This document shows positions 22,943 to 37,837 of a DNA stretch of 64,000 bases, piece by piece. The translations under genes were made by a program, and so were the position numbers. The notes under the pieces are model-generated. The model ran no database searches. It saw only the letters and a list, made by a program, of their open reading frames with translations, and was not told where the DNA came from. Source of the DNA: Escherichia coli (GTDB lineage Bacteria > Pseudomonadota > Gammaproteobacteria > Enterobacterales > Enterobacteriaceae). How positions within the stretch are numbered: the first letter of the stretch is position 1; each line of letters starts with the position of its first letter. Location of the stretch: the NCBI RefSeq assembly GCF_044324785.1, contig NZ_CP172127.1; one strand, written 5' to 3'.

Positions 22943-23268
22943 AGACCTTCCGCTGGAAAGTGAAACCCGGTATGGATGTGGCTTCGGCCCCTTCCGTCAG
23001 GAAAGTGCGCTTTGGTGATGGCTATTCCCAGCGAGCGCCTGCCGGGCTGAATGCCGACCTGAAAACGTACAGCGTGACGCTTTCTGTTCCCCGTTGGGAG
23101 GCCACGGCGCTGGAGTCGTTTCTGGCTGAGCACGGGGGCTGGAAAGCCTTTCTGTGGACGCCGCCTTATGAGTGGCGGCAGATAAAGGTGACCTGCGCAA
23201 AATGGTCGTCGCGGGTCAGTATGCTGCGTGTTGAGTTCAGCGCAGAGTTTGAACAGGTGGTGAACTGA
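22939..23268 (+). CDS. M: Tail tip protein gpM
   Basis: 109 aa MKTFRWKVKPGMDVASAPS... Confidence 0.9.
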   Translation: MKTFRWKVKPGMDVASAPSVRKVRFGDGYSQRAPAGLNADLKTYSVTLSVPRWEATALESFLAEHGGWKAFLWTPPYEWRQIKVTCAKWSSRVSMLRVEFSAEFEQVVN

Positions 23269-23966
23269 TGCAGGATATCCGGCAGGAAACACTGAATGAA
23301 TGCACCCGTGCGGAGCAGTCGGCCAGCGTGGTGCTCTGGGAAATCGACCTGACAGAGGTCGGTGGAGAACGTTATTTTTTCTGTAATGAGCAGAACGAAA
23401 AAGGTGAGCCGGTCACCTGGCAGGGGCGACAGTATCAGCCGTATCCCATTCAGGGGAGTGGTTTTGAACTGAATGGCAAAGGCACCAGTACGCGCCCCAC
23501 ACTGACGGTTTCTAACCTGTACGGTATGGTCACCGGGATGGCGGAAGATCTGCAGAGTCTGGTCGGTGGAACGGTGGTCCGGCGTAAGGTTTACGCCCGT
23601 TTTCTGGATGCGGTGAACTTCGTCAACGGAAACAGTGGCGCCGATCCGGAGCAGGAGGTGATCAGCCGCTGGCGCATTGAGCAGTGCAGCGAACTGAGCG
23701 CGGTGAGTGCCTCTTTTGTACTGTCCACGCCGACGGAAACGGATGGCGCTGTTTTTCCGGGACGTATCATGCTGGCCAACACCTGCACCTGGACCTATCG
23801 CGGTGACGAGTGCGGTTATAGCGGTCCGGCTGTCGCGGATGAATATGACCAGCCAACGTCCGATATCACGAAGGATAAATGCAGCAAATGCCTGAGCGGT
23901 TGTAAGTTCCGCAATAACGTCGGCAACTTTGGCGGCTTCCTTTCCATTAACAAACTTTCGCAGTAA
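23268..23966 (+). CDS. L: Tail tip protein gpL (C-terminal Cys cluster)
   Basis: 232 aa; C-terminal CxxC...C...C cluster (CTWTYRGDECGY...CSKCLSGC). Confidence 0.9.
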   Translation: MQDIRQETLNECTRAEQSASVVLWEIDLTEVGGERYFFCNEQNEKGEPVTWQGRQYQPYPIQGSGFELNGKGTSTRPTLTVSNLYGMVTGMAEDLQSLVGGTVVRRKVYARFLDAVNFVNGNSGADPEQEVISRWRIEQCSELSAVSASFVLSTPTETDGAVFPGRIMLANTCTWTYRGDECGYSGPAVADEYDQPTSDITKDKCSKCLSGCKFRNNVGNFGGFLSINKLSQ

Positions 23967-29566: not shown

Positions 29567-29576
29567 TGGGGTGAAT

Positions 29577-32405
29577 ATGGCAGTAAAGATTTCAGGTGTA
29601 CTGAAAGACGGCACAGGAAAACCGGTACAGAACTGCACAATCCAGCTGAAAGCAAAACGTAACAGCACCACGGTGGTGGTAAACACGCTGGCCTCAGAAA
29701 ATCCGGATGAAGCCGGGCGTTACAGCATGGACGTTGAGTACGGGCAGTACAGCGTTATTCTGTTGGTGGAGGGATTCCCGCCGTCACATGCCGGGACCAT
29801 CACCGTGTATGAAGATTCCCGACCCGGTACGCTGAATGATTTTCTCGGTGCCATGACGGAGGATGATGCCCGTCCTGAGGCACTGCGCCGTTTTGAACTG
29901 ATGGTGGAAGAGGTGGCGCGTAACGCGTCCGCGGTGGCACAGAACACGGCAGCCGCGAAGAAGTCAGCCAGCGATGCCGGCACATCAGCACGTGAGGCGG
30001 CAACCCATGCGACTGATGCTGCAGGCTCAGCACGCGCAGCCAGCACGTCAGCCGGACAGGCCGCGTCGTCGGCTCAGTCAGCATCTTCCAGCGCAGGAAC
30101 GGCATCAACAAAGGCCAGTGAAGCATCGAAAAGTGCTGCTGCTGCAGAGTCCTCAAAAAGCGCGGCAGCTACCAGTGCCGCTGCGGCGAAAACGTCAGAA
30201 ACGAATGCGGCAGCGTCACAACAATCAGCAGCCACTTCTGCATCCGCCGCGACCACGAAGGCGTCAGAAGCTGCCACCTCAGCCCGGGATGCGGCGGCCT
30301 CAAAAGAGGCGGCAAAATCATCAGAAACGAGCGCAGCCTCGAGCGCCAGTAGTGCAGCCTCCTCGGCAACAGCGGCAGGAAATTCCGCGAAGGCGGCAAA
30401 AACGTCCGAGACGAACGCTAAGTCTTCTGAGACGGCAGCAGCACAGAGTGCCTCCGCAGCAGCAGACTCAAAAACAGCGGCTGCCTCATCTGCCAGCGCC
30501 GCGTCAACAAATGCCGGGCAGGCCTCAGCCAGTGCCACCGCCGCCGGAAAATCGGCAGAAAGTGCTGCATCGTCCGCTTCAACAGCCACAACGAAGGCTG
30601 GCGAAGCCGCTGTACAGGCCAGCGCAGCAGCGAGGTCTGCTTCCGCAGCGAAGACATCCGAGACGAACGCGAAAGCGTCGGAAACCAGCGCAGAATCCTC
30701 AAAAACGGCTGCCGCATCGTCCGCCAGTTCGGCGGCGTCATCGGCATCATCTGCGTCTGCTTCAAAAGATGAGGCGACCAGACAAGCGTCCGCAGCGAAG
30801 GGCAGCGCCACGACAGCATCCACGAAGGCGACAGAGGCAGCTGGCAGTGCGACGGCGGCAGCACAGAGCAAAAGTACGGCGGAATCCGCGGCAACGCGCG
30901 CCGAGACAGCGGCAAAACGGGCAGAGGATATTGCATCCGCCGTGGCGCTTGAGGATGCGAGCACGACGAAAAAGGGGATAGTACAGCTCAGCAGTGCGAC
31001 CAACAGCACTTCCGAGTCACAGGCGGCAACGCCAAAAGCCGTTAAGGCCGCGTATGACCTGGCTAACGGGAAATACACCGCACAGGACGCTACGACAGCA
31101 CAAAAAGGAATTGTCCAGCTCAGTAGTGCAACCAACAGCACATCTGAAACGCTTGCTGCGACACCGAAAGCAGTGAAAGCAGCTAATGACAATGCGAATG
31201 GTCGGGTACCTTCTGCCCGTAAGGTGAATGGTAAGGCGCTTTCAGCGGATATAACACTGACGCCGAAAGATATTGGTACGCTTAACTCAACAACAATGTC
31301 ATTCAGCGGTGGTACTGGTTGGTTCAAATTAGCAACGGTAACCATGCCACAGGCGAGTTCTGTTGTTTCAATTACGTTGATTGGTGGCGCTGGATTTAAC
31401 GTGGGGTCACCTCAACAGGCAGGTATATCTGAACTTGTTTTACGTGCAGGTAATGGTAATCCGAAGGGGATTACTGGTGCTTTATGGCAGCGCACATCGA
31501 CAGGGTTTACAAATTTTGCCTGGGTCAATACATCTGGTGATACTTACGATATTTACGTTGCAATCGGAAATTATGCGACTGGTGTAAATATTCAATGGGA
31601 TTATACCAGTAATGCCAGCGTGACGATTCATACGTCACCAGCATATTCTGCTAATAAGCCGGAAGGGTTAACGGACGGTACAGTTTATTCACTCTATACG
31701 CCATCAGAGCAGTTTTATCCGCCTGGCGCACCAATCCCGTGGCCATCAGATACCGTTCCGTCTGGCTATGCCCTGATGCAGGGGCAGACTTTTGACAAAT
31801 CTGCATACCCGAAACTTGCAGCCGCTTATCCGTCAGGCGTGATCCCTGATATGCGTGGCTGGACGATTAAGGGCAAACCTGCCAGTGGTCGGGCCGTATT
31901 GTCTCAGGAACAGGACGGCATTAAATCGCATACCCACAGCGCCAGCGCATCCAGTACGGATTTGGGGACGAAAACCACATCGTCGTTTGATTACGGCACT
32001 AAATCCACGAATAACACTGGTGCGCATACCCATAGTTTAAGTGGCAGCACGAATGCAGCTGGTAATCACAGCCATAGAGATGGCCGTCGATTTAACCCCA
32101 GTGTTTTTAAAGATACTTATCAATATGGTTATACAAGCTCAGGTCAAAATACCTGGGGTGTACAAGGCTCAGTAGGTATGTCTACGGGGTGGTTAGCGAA
32201 TACCAGTACAGATGGTAATCATAGCCATTCACTGTCCGGCACAGCAGCATCTGCAGGTGCACACGCGCATACTGTCGGTATTGGTGCTCATACGCACTCC
32301 GTTGCGATTGGTTCACATGGACACACCATCACCGTTAACGCTGCTGGTAACGCGGAAAACACCGTCAAAAACATCGCATTTAACTATATTGTGAGGCTTG
32401 CATAA
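29577..32405 (+). CDS. stf: Side tail fiber protein Stf
   Basis: ORF 29571-32405; start at [12 protein letters not shown]; Ala/Ser-rich repeat block, duplicated phage tail-fiber repeat ([15 protein letters not shown]...[10 protein letters not shown]), His-rich HxH C-terminal motifs. Confidence 0.9.
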
Positions 32406-32980
32406 TGGCATTCAGAATGAGTGAACAACCACGGACCATAAAAATTTATAATCTGCTGGCCGGAACTAATGAATTTATTGGTGAAGGTGACGCATATATT
32501 CCGCCTCATACAGGTCTGCCAGCAAACAGTACCGATATTGCACCACCAGATATTCCTGCTGGCTTTGTGGCTGTTTTCAACAGTGATAAGGCATCGTGGC
32601 ATCTCGTTGAAGACCATCGGGGTAAAACGGTTTATGACGTAGCGTCAGGGGACGCGTTATTTATTTCTGAACTCGGTCCGTTACCGGAAAATGTTACCTG
32701 GTTATCGCCGGAAGGGGAGTTTCAGAAGTGGAACGGCACAGCCTGGGTGAAAGATGCAGAAGCAGAAAAACTGTTCCGGATCCGAGAGGCGGAAGAAACA
32801 AAAAACAGCCTGATGCAGGTAGCCAGTGAGCATATTGCGCCACTTCAGGATGCTGTAGATCTGGAAATCGCAACGGAGGAAGAAACCTCATTGCTGGAAG
32901 CCTGGAAAAAGTATCGGGTGTTGCTGAACCGTGTTGATACGTCAACTGCACAGGATATTGAATGGCCAGCACTGCCGTAG
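32405..32980 (+). CDS. tfa: Tail fiber assembly protein Tfa
   Basis: 191 aa [24 protein letters not shown]...; ATG overlaps stf stop (TAATG). Confidence 0.9.
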
Positions 32981-33077
32981 GGTAAAACATATAAATTCTA
33001 TAATTAGATGTATCTTTCCATTTACGGCAAGGAAGGGGGCTTGGAAGACGTAAAGCATCTCACACCGAGATTATTTT

Positions 33078-33668
33078 TTATATGTCAGGTGTCTGAAGTT
33101 TTGCTTTGGCTCTTAAAATGGTTTGCCGCGAGGTTTTGAATTCCCGGGCAATGGCACTTATACTTACACCTGACTTAATTCGTTCGAATACCACCTGTTT
33201 CTGTTCTTCATTTAACACAGGTGGTCGACCAAAACGTTTCCCTGCGCCGCGGGCTCTTACTATCCCGGAATGAGTGCGTTCAAGTAAAAGGTCTCGTTCA
33301 AATTCAGCGACTGCTGAAATTACGTGCATCATCATTTTTCCTGTTGGACTGGTCAGGTCAATGCCCCCCAATGCTAAGCAATGCACTCTGATACCTGTTT
33401 CGGTCAGTTGTTCCACTGTTTTCCTGATATCCATTGCATTACAACCAAGGCGATCCAGTTTTGTCACAATCAATTGATCACCACATTTCAGGCGAGCAAG
33501 CAACCGGTTAAAACCAGGACGCTCACTGGTTGCTGCTGAGCCGCTAATGTGTTCTTCGATTATTTGCTGAGGTTTGATTTTAAAACCTGCACTTTCGATT
33601 TCCCGGCGTTGATTTTCGATGGTCTGATCCAGCGTTGATATCCGACAGTAAGCAAAAATTCGAGACAT
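33078..33668 (-). CDS. pin: Pin/Gin/Hin-family serine DNA invertase
   Basis: 196 aa [20 protein letters not shown]... with catalytic Ser in the N-terminal motif and C-terminal HTH. Confidence 0.9.
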
Positions 33669-33984
33669 AGTGAGACTCTATACGAAATTGGTGTTCATAT
33701 CATAATGCATCTCAGAAAATAATTTTGATTATTTTTGTGCATATTTGTATGTACACGTTCGAAAATAAACGAATGCGTATGCAACCCCGTAATTTTGGTG
33801 AGACCCAAAATCGATTTTGTGAAAAATGGCTTTAACTCGGTTTGTTTTTCGAGTTCCGGGCGGACTCAAGGAAGAAGAATAGTGTTGCGTGTTATTTTAA
33901 CCAGATTTCAAGTTGTTTGGTCGTGGAAAAGTGGAGCAAAATGTTGTTAAAGTGGAAAAATGATAAAAAAGTAAGTTTATTATA

Positions 33985-34218
33985 TTACATTTTACCATTT
34001 AAATTTTGGTTGTCTTTAAGAACTGATATCGCTGTTTGTAATAATTCTTTGTTATCCAGCCATGATTTTTTCTTTATGTTTCCTTCAATGTAATCAAGCA
34101 ATGTTCTGGTATTGATAGGTCTTCCCTGTTTTGCTACTTCCACTACAGCATCCCCTAGGATAATTCTTACTTCAGGAAGCTGCGCAGGGAACCACTTTAG
34201 GGTGTCTTTTGATTTCAT
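33985..34218 (-). CDS. ydfK: YdfK/YnaE-family prophage protein
   Basis: ORF 33985-34251; start at MKSKDTLKWFPAQLPEV (77 aa). Confidence 0.75.
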   Translation of the reverse strand: MKSKDTLKWFPAQLPEVRIILGDAVVEVAKQGRPINTRTLLDYIEGNIKKKSWLDNKELLQTAISVLKDNQNLNGKM

Positions 34219-35003
34219 GAAGATATTCCTTAAAATATTATTGAGTTTCATTGCGATATTGTATGTCTGATTCAGGATATGTTGACTTATACATCGGTTT
34301 TGTCTGGGTTATTGGATATGCCAATCCCTAATTTTATTAGGGCATGACTAAAAATGCTGAATATGATAAGGAGAGAAGTGATTATCAGTATGCTGTTCAT
34401 ATAGCCTCGAATTAGTAATGTGTTATATATGATATAGTTGACAATTTTTATCTTGGGTGTTCTTAAAGTTCGTAGATAAACATTGTCGTTTCAGGTATAC
34501 AGGAATGCTAACAGGTGGCAGCAAAAATCAGGCGGTTTATGGCGCAAGCTGAAGCGGCAACTGCAAACTATCTTATGCAGAGACTCTACACGGATTGGGT
34601 TTAAAAGTATACATAGATAACAGTTTTTATCTGAAAAAGAAAAATATCAAGGTGATATAGCCTATATGCCTTTGATGCGGAGGAATGAATGTGATGGGAG
34701 TGATGTATCTGAATAGTTGAAAAACCGCAGACACGCCTTATGCAAGAACGTGCTGCGGTTGGCTGGTAAATTTTTCGATAGTGTGAGTATTGAATGATTT
34801 CCAGCCGTTCTTGATTTTACGCATAAATCCATGAAAAAACTACTTATCTGTTGGGGAGTTTTTTTGGGGCATATATGGGACAGAAATAGGCCCCAGATAG
34901 ACACTGAGATCGAACTTAGGATGCTTTTTAAAAAATGCAACTATCTGAAAAAACCTAGAAAACGCCAAGGAAACCACAGGATGGGAAAAAACACCTGTGA
35001 ATT

Positions 35004-36287
35004 ATGGATTTCCAGTTATATTCGCTCGGCGCAGCGTTAGTGTTTCATGAAATATTTTTTCCTGAATCATCAACGGCAATGGCGTTAATTCTGGCAATGG
35101 GAACCTACGGTGCAGGTTATGTGGCACGTATTGTCGGAGCATTTATTTTCGGCAAAATGGGCGACAGAATCGGGCGTAAAAAAGTGCTCTTTATTACCAT
35201 CACCATGATGGGGATCTGTACCACCTTAATTGGTGTGCTGCCGACCTATGCACAAATTGGTGTGTTTGCGCCAATTTTGCTGGTGACGCTGCGTATTATT
35301 CAGGGGCTGGGGGCAGGCGCGGAAATTTCCGGTGCCGGCACGATGCTGGCGGAATATGCACCAAAAGGTAAGCGCGGAATTATCTCCTCATTTGTTGCTA
35401 TGGGGACTAACTGCGGAACCTTGAGCGCAACGGCAATCTGGGCCTTTATGTTCTTCATTCTCAGTAAAGAGGAACTGCTGGCGTGGGGATGGCGTATACC
35501 GTTCCTGGCGAGCGTTGTCGTGATGGTCTTTGCTATCTGGTTGCGTATGAATCTGAAAGAAAGCCCGGTCTTTGAGAAGGTTAACGACAGCAACCAACCG
35601 ACAGCAAAACCTGCACCTGCTGGTAGCATGTTCCAGAGCAAATCCTTCTGGCTGGCAACAGGGCTGCGTTTTGGTCAGGCGGGTAACTCAGGTTTAATTC
35701 AGACTTTCCTTGCAGGCTATTTAGTGCAGACGTTATTGTTTAACAAAGCAATTCCAACAGATGCATTGATGATCAGTTCGATTCTCGGCTTTATGACCAT
35801 TCCGTTCCTTGGTTGGTTATCCGATAAAATTGGTCGCCGGATCCCGTATATTATTATGAATACCTCCGCGATTGTGCTGGCATGGCCAATGCTTTCTATC
35901 ATCGTAGATAAAAGCTATGCCCCGAGCACCATTATGGTTGCACTGATTGTGATTCATAACTGTGCGGTGCTGGGATTATTTGCTCTGGAAAACATTACCA
36001 TGGCAGAAATGTTCGGCTGTAAAAACCGCTTTACCCGGATGGCTATTTCTAAAGAAATTGGTGGTCTTATCGCTTCCGGTTTTGGTCCTATCCTGGCGGG
36101 TATTTTCTGCACCATGACGGAATCCTGGTATCCGATCGCCATTATGATCATGGCATATTCAGTGATTGGTTTAATCTCTGCGCTGAAAATGCCAGAGGTG
36201 AAAGACCGTGATTTAAGTGCGCTGGAAGACGCTGCGGAAGATCAACCGCGTGTTGTAAGAGCTGCGCAACCTTCCAGAAGTCTGTAA
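35004..36287 (+). CDS. ydfJ: MFS transporter (metabolite:H+ symporter family), apparently lacking the normal N-terminus
   Basis: 427-aa ORF MDFQLYSLGAALVFHEIFFPESS...; aligns from the conserved WYDF motif onward of MHS transporters; in-frame stop immediately upstream. Confidence 0.85.
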   Translation: MDFQLYSLGAALVFHEIFFPESSTAMALILAMGTYGAGYVARIVGAFIFGKMGDRIGRKKVLFITITMMGICTTLIGVLPTYAQIGVFAPILLVTLRIIQGLGAGAEISGAGTMLAEYAPKGKRGIISSFVAMGTNCGTLSATAIWAFMFFILSKEELLAWGWRIPFLASVVVMVFAIWLRMNLKESPVFEKVNDSNQPTAKPAPAGSMFQSKSFWLATGLRFGQAGNSGLIQTFLAGYLVQTLLFNKAIPTDALMISSILGFMTIPFLGWLSDKIGRRIPYIIMNTSAIVLAWPMLSIIVDKSYAPSTIMVALIVIHNCAVLGLFALENITMAEMFGCKNRFTRMAISKEIGGLIASGFGPILAGIFCTMTESWYPIAIMIMAYSVIGLISALKMPEVKDRDLSALEDAAEDQPRVVRAAQPSRSL

Positions 36288-36376
36288 ATCCTCCATCCCT
36301 TCTCTTACCGGAGAGGGGATTTTTTATTCATATAACAAAACATGCAGCTTGCCATATTTAAATTTAAGGAATTGTT

Positions 36377-37837
36377 ATGGGAAATAATTTGTTATCAGCA
36401 AAAGCGACGCTCCCTGTTTATGATCGTAATAACCTGGCCCCAAGAATTGTTCATTTAGGCTTTGGTGCATTTCACCGTGCGCATCAGGGCGTGTATGCCG
36501 ATATTCTTGCTACGGAACATTTCAGTGACTGGGGATATTATGAGGTCAATTTAATCGGCGGCGAACAGCAAATTGCCGATTTACAACAGCAAGATAATCT
36601 TTATACCGTTGCGGAAATGTCGGCCGATGCGTGGACGGCTCGCGTCGTTGGCGTCGTTAAAAAAGCCTTGCACATACAAATAGATGGCTTAGAAACCGTG
36701 CTGGCCGCGATGTGTGAACCGCAAATCGCGATTGTCTCTCTGACAATCACCGAAAAAGGGTATTTCCACTCTCCGGCGACCGGACAGTTAATGCTCGATC
36801 ACCCGATGGTCGTTGCCGACGTACAAAATCCCCACCAGCCGAAAACTGCAACAGGGGTGATTGTCGAGGCGCTGGCTCGCCGTAAAGCGGCAGGACTTCC
36901 CGCATTTACCGTCATGTCATGTGACAACATGCCAGAAAACGGTCATGTTATGCGTGACGTTGTCACTTCCTACGCGCAAGCTGTTGATGTAAAACTGGCA
37001 CAATGGATCGAAGAAAACGTGACTTTCCCATCAACAATGGTGGACCGTATTGTGCCCGCAGTGACGGAGGATACGCTGGCGAAAATCGAACAACTTACCG
37101 GTGTGCGCGATCCTGCTGGCGTTGCCTGTGAACCTTTCCGCCAGTGGATAATAGAAGATAACTTTGTTGCCGGACGTCCGGAATGGGAAAAAGCGGGAGC
37201 CGAACTGGTTAGTGATGTGCTGCCTTATGAAGAGATGAAGTTGCGCATGCTCAACGGCAGTCATTCATTCCTGGCGTATCTGGGTTATCTTGCCGGATAT
37301 CAGCACATTAATGACTGCATGGAAGATGAACATTATCGTCATGCAGCGTATGCCTTGATGTTGCAAGAACAAGCGCCGACGTTGAAAGTGCAGGGCGTTG
37401 ATTTGCAAGATTACGCTAACCGATTAATTGAACGCTATAGCAACCCGGCGCTACGTCATCGAACCTGGCAGATTGCGATGGATGGCAGCCAGAAATTGCC
37501 ACAGCGGATGTTGGATTCTGTTCGCTGGCATCTGGCGCATGACAGCAAGTTCGATCTGCTGGCTCTGGGCGTCGCAGGTTGGATGCGTTATGTCGGTGGT
37601 GTTGATGAACAGGGAAATCCGATAGAAATCAGTGACCCACTGTTACCTGTTATTCAGAAGGCTGTACAAAGTAGTGCCGAAGGGAAAGCGCGCGTCCAGT
37701 CATTGCTGGCGATTAAGGCGATCTTTGGTGATGATTTGCCAGACAATAGCTTGTTTACTGCAAAAGTGACGGAAGCGTACTTGTCTTTATTAGCGCATGG
37801 TGCGAAAGCGACCGTGGCGAAATATTCCGTGAAGTAA
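36377..37837 (+). CDS. ydfI: Mannitol dehydrogenase-family oxidoreductase
   Basis: 486-aa ORF; N-terminal Rossmann GFGAFHRAH. Confidence 0.9.

Follow-up and report, generated by a model that had tools for sequence, protein, structure and literature searches.

The subject of this report is the 5' end of ydfJ in a 64,000-nucleotide stretch of Escherichia coli DNA (contig NZ_CP172127.1 of assembly GCF_044324785.1, hereafter the window). Here ydfJ, a gene for an MHS-family transporter, lies beside the right end of a lambdoid prophage, and an AT-rich stretch separates it from the prophage gene ydfK. A preliminary description, drawn from the letters of the window, had proposed that ydfJ is truncated at its N-terminus, either by a phage attachment (att) junction inside its 5' end or by a local frameshift. 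Four features define the boundary (ydfJ' denotes the truncated gene):

1-35012, plus strand: DNA of a complete-looking Qin/mEp460-type lambdoid prophage, assigned from collinearity with the genome IAI1 and from host homology that starts only at 34998
34998-35000, plus strand: TGA stop codon in the ydfJ frame, phage-derived and the first triplet of an imperfect core extension (TGAATT), from direct reading and comparison of att sites
35002-35012, no strand: att common core TTATGGATTTC, the crossover region, identical across attB, attL, attR and attP
35004-36287, plus strand: ydfJ', the 3' 427 codons of an MHS-family MFS transporter gene, from the reading frame, restoration of the gene and protein profiles

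The ydfJ' open reading frame (ORF) begins MDFQLYS (MDFQLYSLGAALVF) and encodes 427 residues. One codon (ATT) separates its ATG from the in-frame TGA, and an ORF in another frame (34831-35040, plus strand, 69 residues) reads ...RQGNHRMGKNTCELWISSY and ends ...GNHRMGKNTCELW, that is, ...CELW. The preliminary description had reported this start, the nearby stop and the other-frame GN..ELW ORF, and all three hold on direct reading. It was also right about the AT-rich stretch: the 785 bp from the ydfK start to the ydfJ' ATG (34219-35003) have a G+C content of 36.8%, versus 47.4% for ydfJ and 50.3% for the window. In AR_0077 and IAI1, two genomes with the junction seen in the window, the Prokaryotic Genome Annotation Pipeline (PGAP) flags ydfJ' as 'incomplete; missing N-terminus'.

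The empty site, the common core and restoration of the gene in silico

In the prophage-free chromosome of 23CRST035, rspA, rspB, ydfJ and ydfI are contiguous, and ydfJ encodes 455 residues from a start 57 bp past rspB. Homology of the window to this chromosome starts abruptly at 34998 and continues at 97.7% identity to the end of the locus, and the window left of 34998 has no match to the 23CRST035 locus. The comparison with prophage-free orthologues that the preliminary description had called for thus returned a longer gene behind different upstream DNA, and a start at Met29 was not seen there. The ydfJ' initiator ATG is Met29 of the intact protein and lies inside the att core; codons 1-28 are gone.

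The same breakpoint recurs across the species. When window positions 34000-35300 were searched by megablast against 5,426 complete E. coli genomes, the breakpoints were sharp, many genomes matching only from query position 999 (window 34998) on. The ydfK-ynfT-P arm-ydfJ' junction of the window was present in 1,960 of the 5,426 genomes (~36%), and a 300-bp attB stretch was intact in 2,009 (~37%). Most genomes that lack the intact stretch are split exactly at the core (query ends at 159/162, starts at 144). The remaining genomes have other prophage cargo at the ydfJ site or are rearranged.

The 11-bp core spans ydfJ codons 28-31 and occurs once in the window. Its sequence is identical in all four kinds of site, which read as follows:

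attB (23CRST035): ...ctgcgcttgaatttATGGATTTCcagttatattcgc (gcgcttgaatttATGGATTTCcagtta)
attL (K-12, IAI1 and AR_0077): ...ctgcgcttgaatttATGGATTTCaagagtcatgcg (gcgcttgaatttATGGATTTCaagagt)
attR (window, K-12, IAI1 and AR_0077): ...aacacctgtgaattATGGATTTCcagttatattcgc (cacctgtgaattATGGATTTCcagtta)
attP (free phages mEp460_ev081 and HannyBb): ...aacacctgtgaattATGGATTTCaagagtcat (cacctgtgaattATGGATTTCaagagt)

From 34998 on, identity extends imperfectly around the core as TGAATT(T)ATGGATTTC. In this extension attP has TGAATT-ATGG where attB has TGAATTTATGG, a 1-nt indel that is fixed in all attR and attP copies compared. The T-run is therefore one T shorter in attP and attR than in attB and attL, which must place the crossover to its right. 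The preliminary description had placed the core within the AT-rich spacer; it sits at the extreme right edge, with 9 of its 11 bp, the ATG included, in the truncated ORF.

Both free phages carry a contiguous attP (P arm, core, P' arm) with int and xis adjacent to it. An attP reconstructed from the P arm of the window, the core and the P' arm of IAI1 matches that of mEp460_ev081 at 522 of 523 nt. On the bacterial side, the ORF at attL of IAI1 reads MTIEKHERSTKDLVKAAVSGWLGTALEFMDFKSHAC..., where the 5' fragment of ydfJ runs on into P'-arm sequence. Joining its 84 nt of ydfJ to the window ORF, an in-silico excision, gives 455 residues with 0 mismatches to intact YdfJ (WP_000151243.1), and the full-length gene expected by the preliminary description is thereby restored. 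The whole IAI1 attL-side ORF (L005, minus strand) consists of ydfJ codons 1-31 plus P'-arm sequence, MTIEKHERSTKDLVKAAVSGWLGTALEFMDFKSHACQLFDKY, 42 residues in all; the K-12 ORF at this place, adjoining rspB, is annotated as protein ynfP (L004 28729-28839; 111 nt, 36 codons).

Neither the missing 28 codons nor the rspB-ydfJ spacer was found by tblastn or blastn-short across the whole window, so attL lies outside it. This agrees with the earlier expectation of a second repeat beyond the window; attL was seen in the near-identical genomes. In AR_0077, which is 99.7% identical to the window over the 34000-35300 query, and in IAI1, a lambdoid prophage of 45-48 kb separates ydfJ' from rspB, and int and xis adjoin attL and rspB. 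For the source strain, that end falls outside the window.

We conclude that window positions 34998-35012 are almost certainly the int-distal junction (attR) of a Qin/mEp460-type lambdoid prophage in ydfJ. In this reading, the tyrosine integrase of the phage inserted it at the core across ydfJ codons 28-31, giving an attR of the form P arm-core-B' in the lambda convention. Integration has parted the first 28 codons of ydfJ, along with the rspAB transcription unit ahead of them, from the remainder of the gene; they now lie at attL, about 48 kb off. The 427-codon remnant has a core-supplied Met29 as its first codon, behind a phage-borne in-frame TGA, with neither a Shine-Dalgarno sequence nor a promoter recognisable before it. 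To its left, the AT-rich DNA is of phage origin, comprising the ydfK-ynfT cargo module, a minus-strand terminator hairpin and a P arm of about 140 bp that carries candidate Int arm sites. The intact 455-residue ydfJ would return on precise excision. For the source strain, the rspB-side junction is predicted to read ...GCGCTTGAATTTATGGATTTCAAGAGTCATGCG..., followed by int, and the predicted products of excision are attB GAATTTATGGATTTCCAGTT and attP TGAATTATGGATTTCAAGAG.

The phage side of the junction

The AT-rich stretch is not empty. Together with its left border it contains the following features:

33985-34218, minus strand: ydfK, a prophage cold-shock gene and the left border of the finding; an ORF annotated in matching genomes including K-12
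34287-34400, minus strand: ynfT, encoding a 37-residue small protein of the YnaM/YnfT family; an ORF annotated at the equivalent position in K-12, IAI1 and AR_0077
34720-34760, minus strand: intrinsic-terminator-like hairpin AACCGCAGCACGUUCUUGCAUAAGGCGUGUCUGCGGUU followed by UUU; minimum free energy -20.7 kcal/mol, z = -3.28
34864-35001, no strand: P arm of attP kept at attR, a block common to four different ydfJ-integrated prophages

The alignment that defines the P arm (from about 34864 to the core) joins the window with GF3-3, RM9131, whose cargo is dinI and nleG7, and PSS-15. The arm contains TGGGGCA at 34865-34871 and a TGGGACA copy at 34876-34882, and the P' arm has two further copies of TGGGGCA (+71 and +82), both within the 3' end of int. 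These heptamers are candidate Int arm-type sites. Another sequence, GAAAAAAC, is found three times as a direct repeat (34833-34840, 34947-34954 and 34985-34992) and could represent A-tracts or sites for a bending protein. The 69-residue ORF at 34831-35040 crosses the att core, and the HannyBb record has a hypothetical coding sequence in the corresponding position over attP (L010 3142-3375), but nothing indicates that the ORF is a real gene.

In other ydfJ-integrated prophages and in phage 2H10, a dinI-like gene lies immediately left of the conserved P arm, and RM9131 additionally carries the type III secretion effector gene nleG7 (loci concerned: L007 1357-2007 and 2603-2845, L008 2492-2578, L012 2638-2886). 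With only about 50 bp at this place in the window, the spot is a moron insertion point.

The hairpin at 34720-34760 is conserved at the prophage ends of phage 2H10, phiP27 and GF3-3, with 2 compensatory pairs, a count for which the shuffled control is weak (n = 4 sequences; 75 of 500 shuffles reach it). In the alignment, 90.6% of cells are paired, versus 32-52% in slid controls. The hairpin, 242-279 bp from the core, sits where the ydfK-ynfT cargo module gives way to the att-int module. Its place in mEp460_ev081, a free phage, is on the int-sense strand, downstream of int and past attP, and in phiP27 it is at most about 330 bp from attR. A stable hairpin with a U-tract is thus found where a lambda-type tI/sib element would stand, and we regard it as a candidate counterpart of tI/sib in the integration module.

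An Rfam scan of 33000-36500 returned two matches, neither of which was retained. One, to the CssrB small RNA (RF02799), scored 25.3 bits where the gathering score is 76, with only the 3' hairpin aligning well, and is largely explained by the terminator hairpin; the other, to mir-263, was spurious. The promoter and terminator consensus scan, in which site numbers did not exceed those of shuffled sequence, missed the hairpin owing to its loop-size limit.

As for the rest of the prophage, the window starts inside it and leaves out its int/xis/attL end, about 13 kb off the left edge. Across its left half, the window follows the ~48-kb IAI1 prophage located between ydfJ' and rspB collinearly, at 99.3-99.5% identity. 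The structural module there, which runs from terminase to tail fibres, looks complete. The gene for minor tail protein L is intact in the window (23268-23966, 232 residues) and frameshifted in the 99.5%-identical IAI1 prophage (L005 12937-13636); judging from this gene, the window prophage may be less damaged than its closest sequenced relative. For the side tail fibre, the gene (29571-32405) encodes 944 residues in the window versus 986 in IAI1, and the length difference falls in an Ala/Ser-rich repeat region, where BLAST pieces overlap. The gene for a Pin-type serine invertase, pinQ (33078-33668, minus strand), lies beside stf and tfa (29571-32980), and in AR_0077 the tfa found there is truncated and stf ends in another C-terminus. 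This suggests an invertible or exchangeable tail-fibre segment.

Alternative readings and the fate of YdfJ

The cause of the truncation is site-specific prophage integration, not a frameshift. Had a local frameshift or a small indel struck a ydfJ that is complete in all else, the N-terminal motif would still stand just upstream in another frame, and the ...GNHRMGKNTCELW end of the 69-residue ORF had been taken for such a displaced G-x-x-x-E-[FW] motif. Its GAATT does overlap the ...L-E-F codons of ydfJ with the 1-nt difference described above. However, similarity ends with those 6 nt: GAATT ('EL') is all that matches GAATTT ('EF') of ydfJ, in which nothing corresponds to the G and N. Upstream of the ATG, the 84 nt resemble the true 5' end of ydfJ no better than shuffled sequence does (218 of 1000 shuffles score as well), and tblastn of the missing 28-residue N-terminus (MTIEKHERSTKDLVKAAVSGWLGTALEF) against any frame of the whole window gave a best E of 0.57, at unrelated places. 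The DNA upstream instead has the very sequence of the P arm in free-phage attP, and the 1-nt difference is the fixed attP/attB polymorphism; the apparent change of frame arises because attP mimics attB with a 1-nt indel. A frameshift is, in our judgement, practically inconceivable.

A second possibility, that the 427-residue form is native and the 455-residue form an annotation artefact or a fortuitous extension, is hardly more credible. It could appeal to the K-12 RefSeq entry, in which ydfJ (b1543) is a 427-residue coding sequence, and to the family profile TIGR00883 (the MHS model), whose cutoff of 443.45 bits is passed by the window protein (453.5 bits; intact protein 462.9 bits). Against it stand the 455-residue ORF of 23CRST035, placed 57 bp past rspB behind other DNA, and the 300-bp stretch that is uninterrupted in 2,009 genomes. 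The profiles also argue for the long form, which alone matches TIGR00883 positions 1-6, ShiA positions 12-36 and ProP positions 22-39: TIGR00883 is covered from 1 to 400 by the intact protein and from 7 to 400 by the window protein, the ShiA model is entered at 12 versus 37, and the ProP model at 22 versus 40. The N-terminal truncation claimed by the preliminary description is thereby confirmed, in line with the PGAP flag on the short form and with the published account of the truncation (PMC6379469).

Family membership by score is thus retained, and a complete N-terminus with the first transmembrane segment (TM1) is lacking. By these profile positions, YdfJ' has lost its N-terminus, which is cytoplasmic, together with the opening part of the conserved G-x-x-x-E-[FW]-x-D-F segment; in this family, that segment is placed at the start of TM1. 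A Protein Data Bank sequence search returned no solved close YdfJ homologue at E <= 1e-10, so the loss of TM1 is argued only from family profiles.

Lambda-type phages can reconstitute their target genes on integration, and by analogy ydfJ' might still be expressed from the core ATG, through a phage-arm promoter or read-through, and yield a working transporter, making integration neutral. The core does supply an in-frame ATG, the conserved MHS core loses just 6 profile positions, and ydfJ is among the differentially expressed genes in K-12 RNA-seq, which implies some transcript (PMC11430063). Yet no Shine-Dalgarno-like sequence lies within 15 nt before the ATG (CACCTGTGAATT), and the consensus scan found no plus-strand promoter-like site closer to ydfJ' than 34209-34236. 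The neighbouring phage genes pin, ydfK and ynfT are all oriented away from ydfJ'. The residues lost include the opening part of the conserved segment just named, and loss of the promoter has been reported (PMC6379469). We consider a functional, expressed ydfJ' unlikely. Its inactivation, with both expression and function lost, is likely.

Several points weigh against integration at this core with inactivation of ydfJ. Core identity and restoration were established with near-identical genomes (IAI1 at 99.5%, AR_0077 and K-12) rather than with the source strain, whose attL is outside the window. The truncated protein remains above the family cutoff and is an annotated coding sequence in K-12, so ydfJ' could retain some residual function or expression. 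Promoter-like sites show no enrichment (7 versus 5.7 +/- 2.4 in shuffles), which is a weak negative. On the phage side, both the arm-site and the tI/sib assignments rest on position and conservation, and the covariation control for the hairpin is weak.

Relatives of the junction and its significance

The junction is real, precisely mapped, ordinary and already described: it is the attR of Qin and of the ydfJ prophages (PPydfJ), as given by the K-12 annotation and by earlier work (PMC6379469, PMC8112680). In K-12 MG1655, 'cryptic prophage Qin' is annotated at 1632277..1652745, and its boundary falls in the opening 9 nt of ydfJ. By integrating at the 5' end of that gene, Qin has been reported to remove the promoter and 28 N-terminal codons (PMC6379469). 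The K-12 sites, attR at ydfJ and ynfP at attL, agree closely with what is described here. Over the stretch compared, no base around the core differs; the flanking genes are shared, pinQ-ydfK-ynfT towards the prophage and ydfJ'-ydfI-ydfZ-rspR towards the host; and the 28-codon truncation is the same (PMC6379469). In contrast to the window, with its complete-looking structural module like that of the ~48-kb IAI1 prophage, K-12 retains a remnant of about 20 kb, in which intQ is disrupted by IS2 and head and tail genes are missing.

Among free phages, mEp460_ev081, HannyBb, Tritos and PhiR42_1 share the order stf-tfa-pin-ydfK-attP-int-xis-exo. Their genomes have a contiguous attP, whereas the site in the window is recombined with the chromosome. 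mEp460_ev081 is a functional temperate phage that carries Qin-like genes (PMC10448788). PPydfJ prophages of Shiga toxin-producing E. coli (O26, O157, O111 and others) use the same site and core (PMC8112680) and keep the ~140-bp P arm, but they carry dinI-like and nleG7 effector cargo next to it where the window has the ydfK-ynfT module. The gene is a recognised hotspot for lambdoid integration, and an att sequence of 18/19 bp has been defined for ydfJ prophages (Nakamura et al. 2021, PMC8112680).

Phage lambda offers a more distant parallel, with its tyrosine integrase, short common core and flanking arms with repeated sites, to which the candidate arm sites here would correspond. The organisation of attP, int and tI/sib in lambda is well established: a hairpin terminator lies past attP on the int-sense strand, and integration shifts it to the prophage end far from int. 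The window hairpin resembles sib in position and structure, and integration likewise carries it to the prophage end opposite int. The core and the target differ, lambda integrating between genes at gal-bio and the ydfJ phage inside a gene. To what was already described, the present analysis would add only small things, namely the candidate Int arm sites (TGGGGCA) and the tI/sib-like hairpin.

Insertion might act as a reversible genetic switch ('active lysogeny') of the rspAB-ydfJ-ydfI unit for sugar-acid uptake and catabolism. The idea is conceivable because the phage family is functional, as mEp460_ev081 illustrates, because relatives have intact int and xis, and because excision reconnects the exact 455-residue ydfJ to rspAB. 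There is no evidence for regulation of rspAB-ydfJ-ydfI by excision and integration, and we consider such a switch very unlikely. If it did exist, this unit would be toggled in a large part of E. coli, given the ~36% of genomes with this junction and the ~37% with an empty site.

For the source strain, ydfJ should be annotated as a prophage-split pseudogene with its 5' fragment at the other prophage end, where the K-12 name is ynfP. The AT-rich DNA, which looks intergenic, should be interpreted as phage sequence that holds cargo genes, a terminator and the P arm of attP. The exact coordinates of core and arm can be used in polymerase chain reaction assays of occupancy and excision. Beyond correct annotation, the importance of the junction is slight; the frequencies found, with about equal shares empty or occupied as here and the rest taken by other prophages or rearranged, confirm ydfJ as a major integration hotspot of lambdoid phages.

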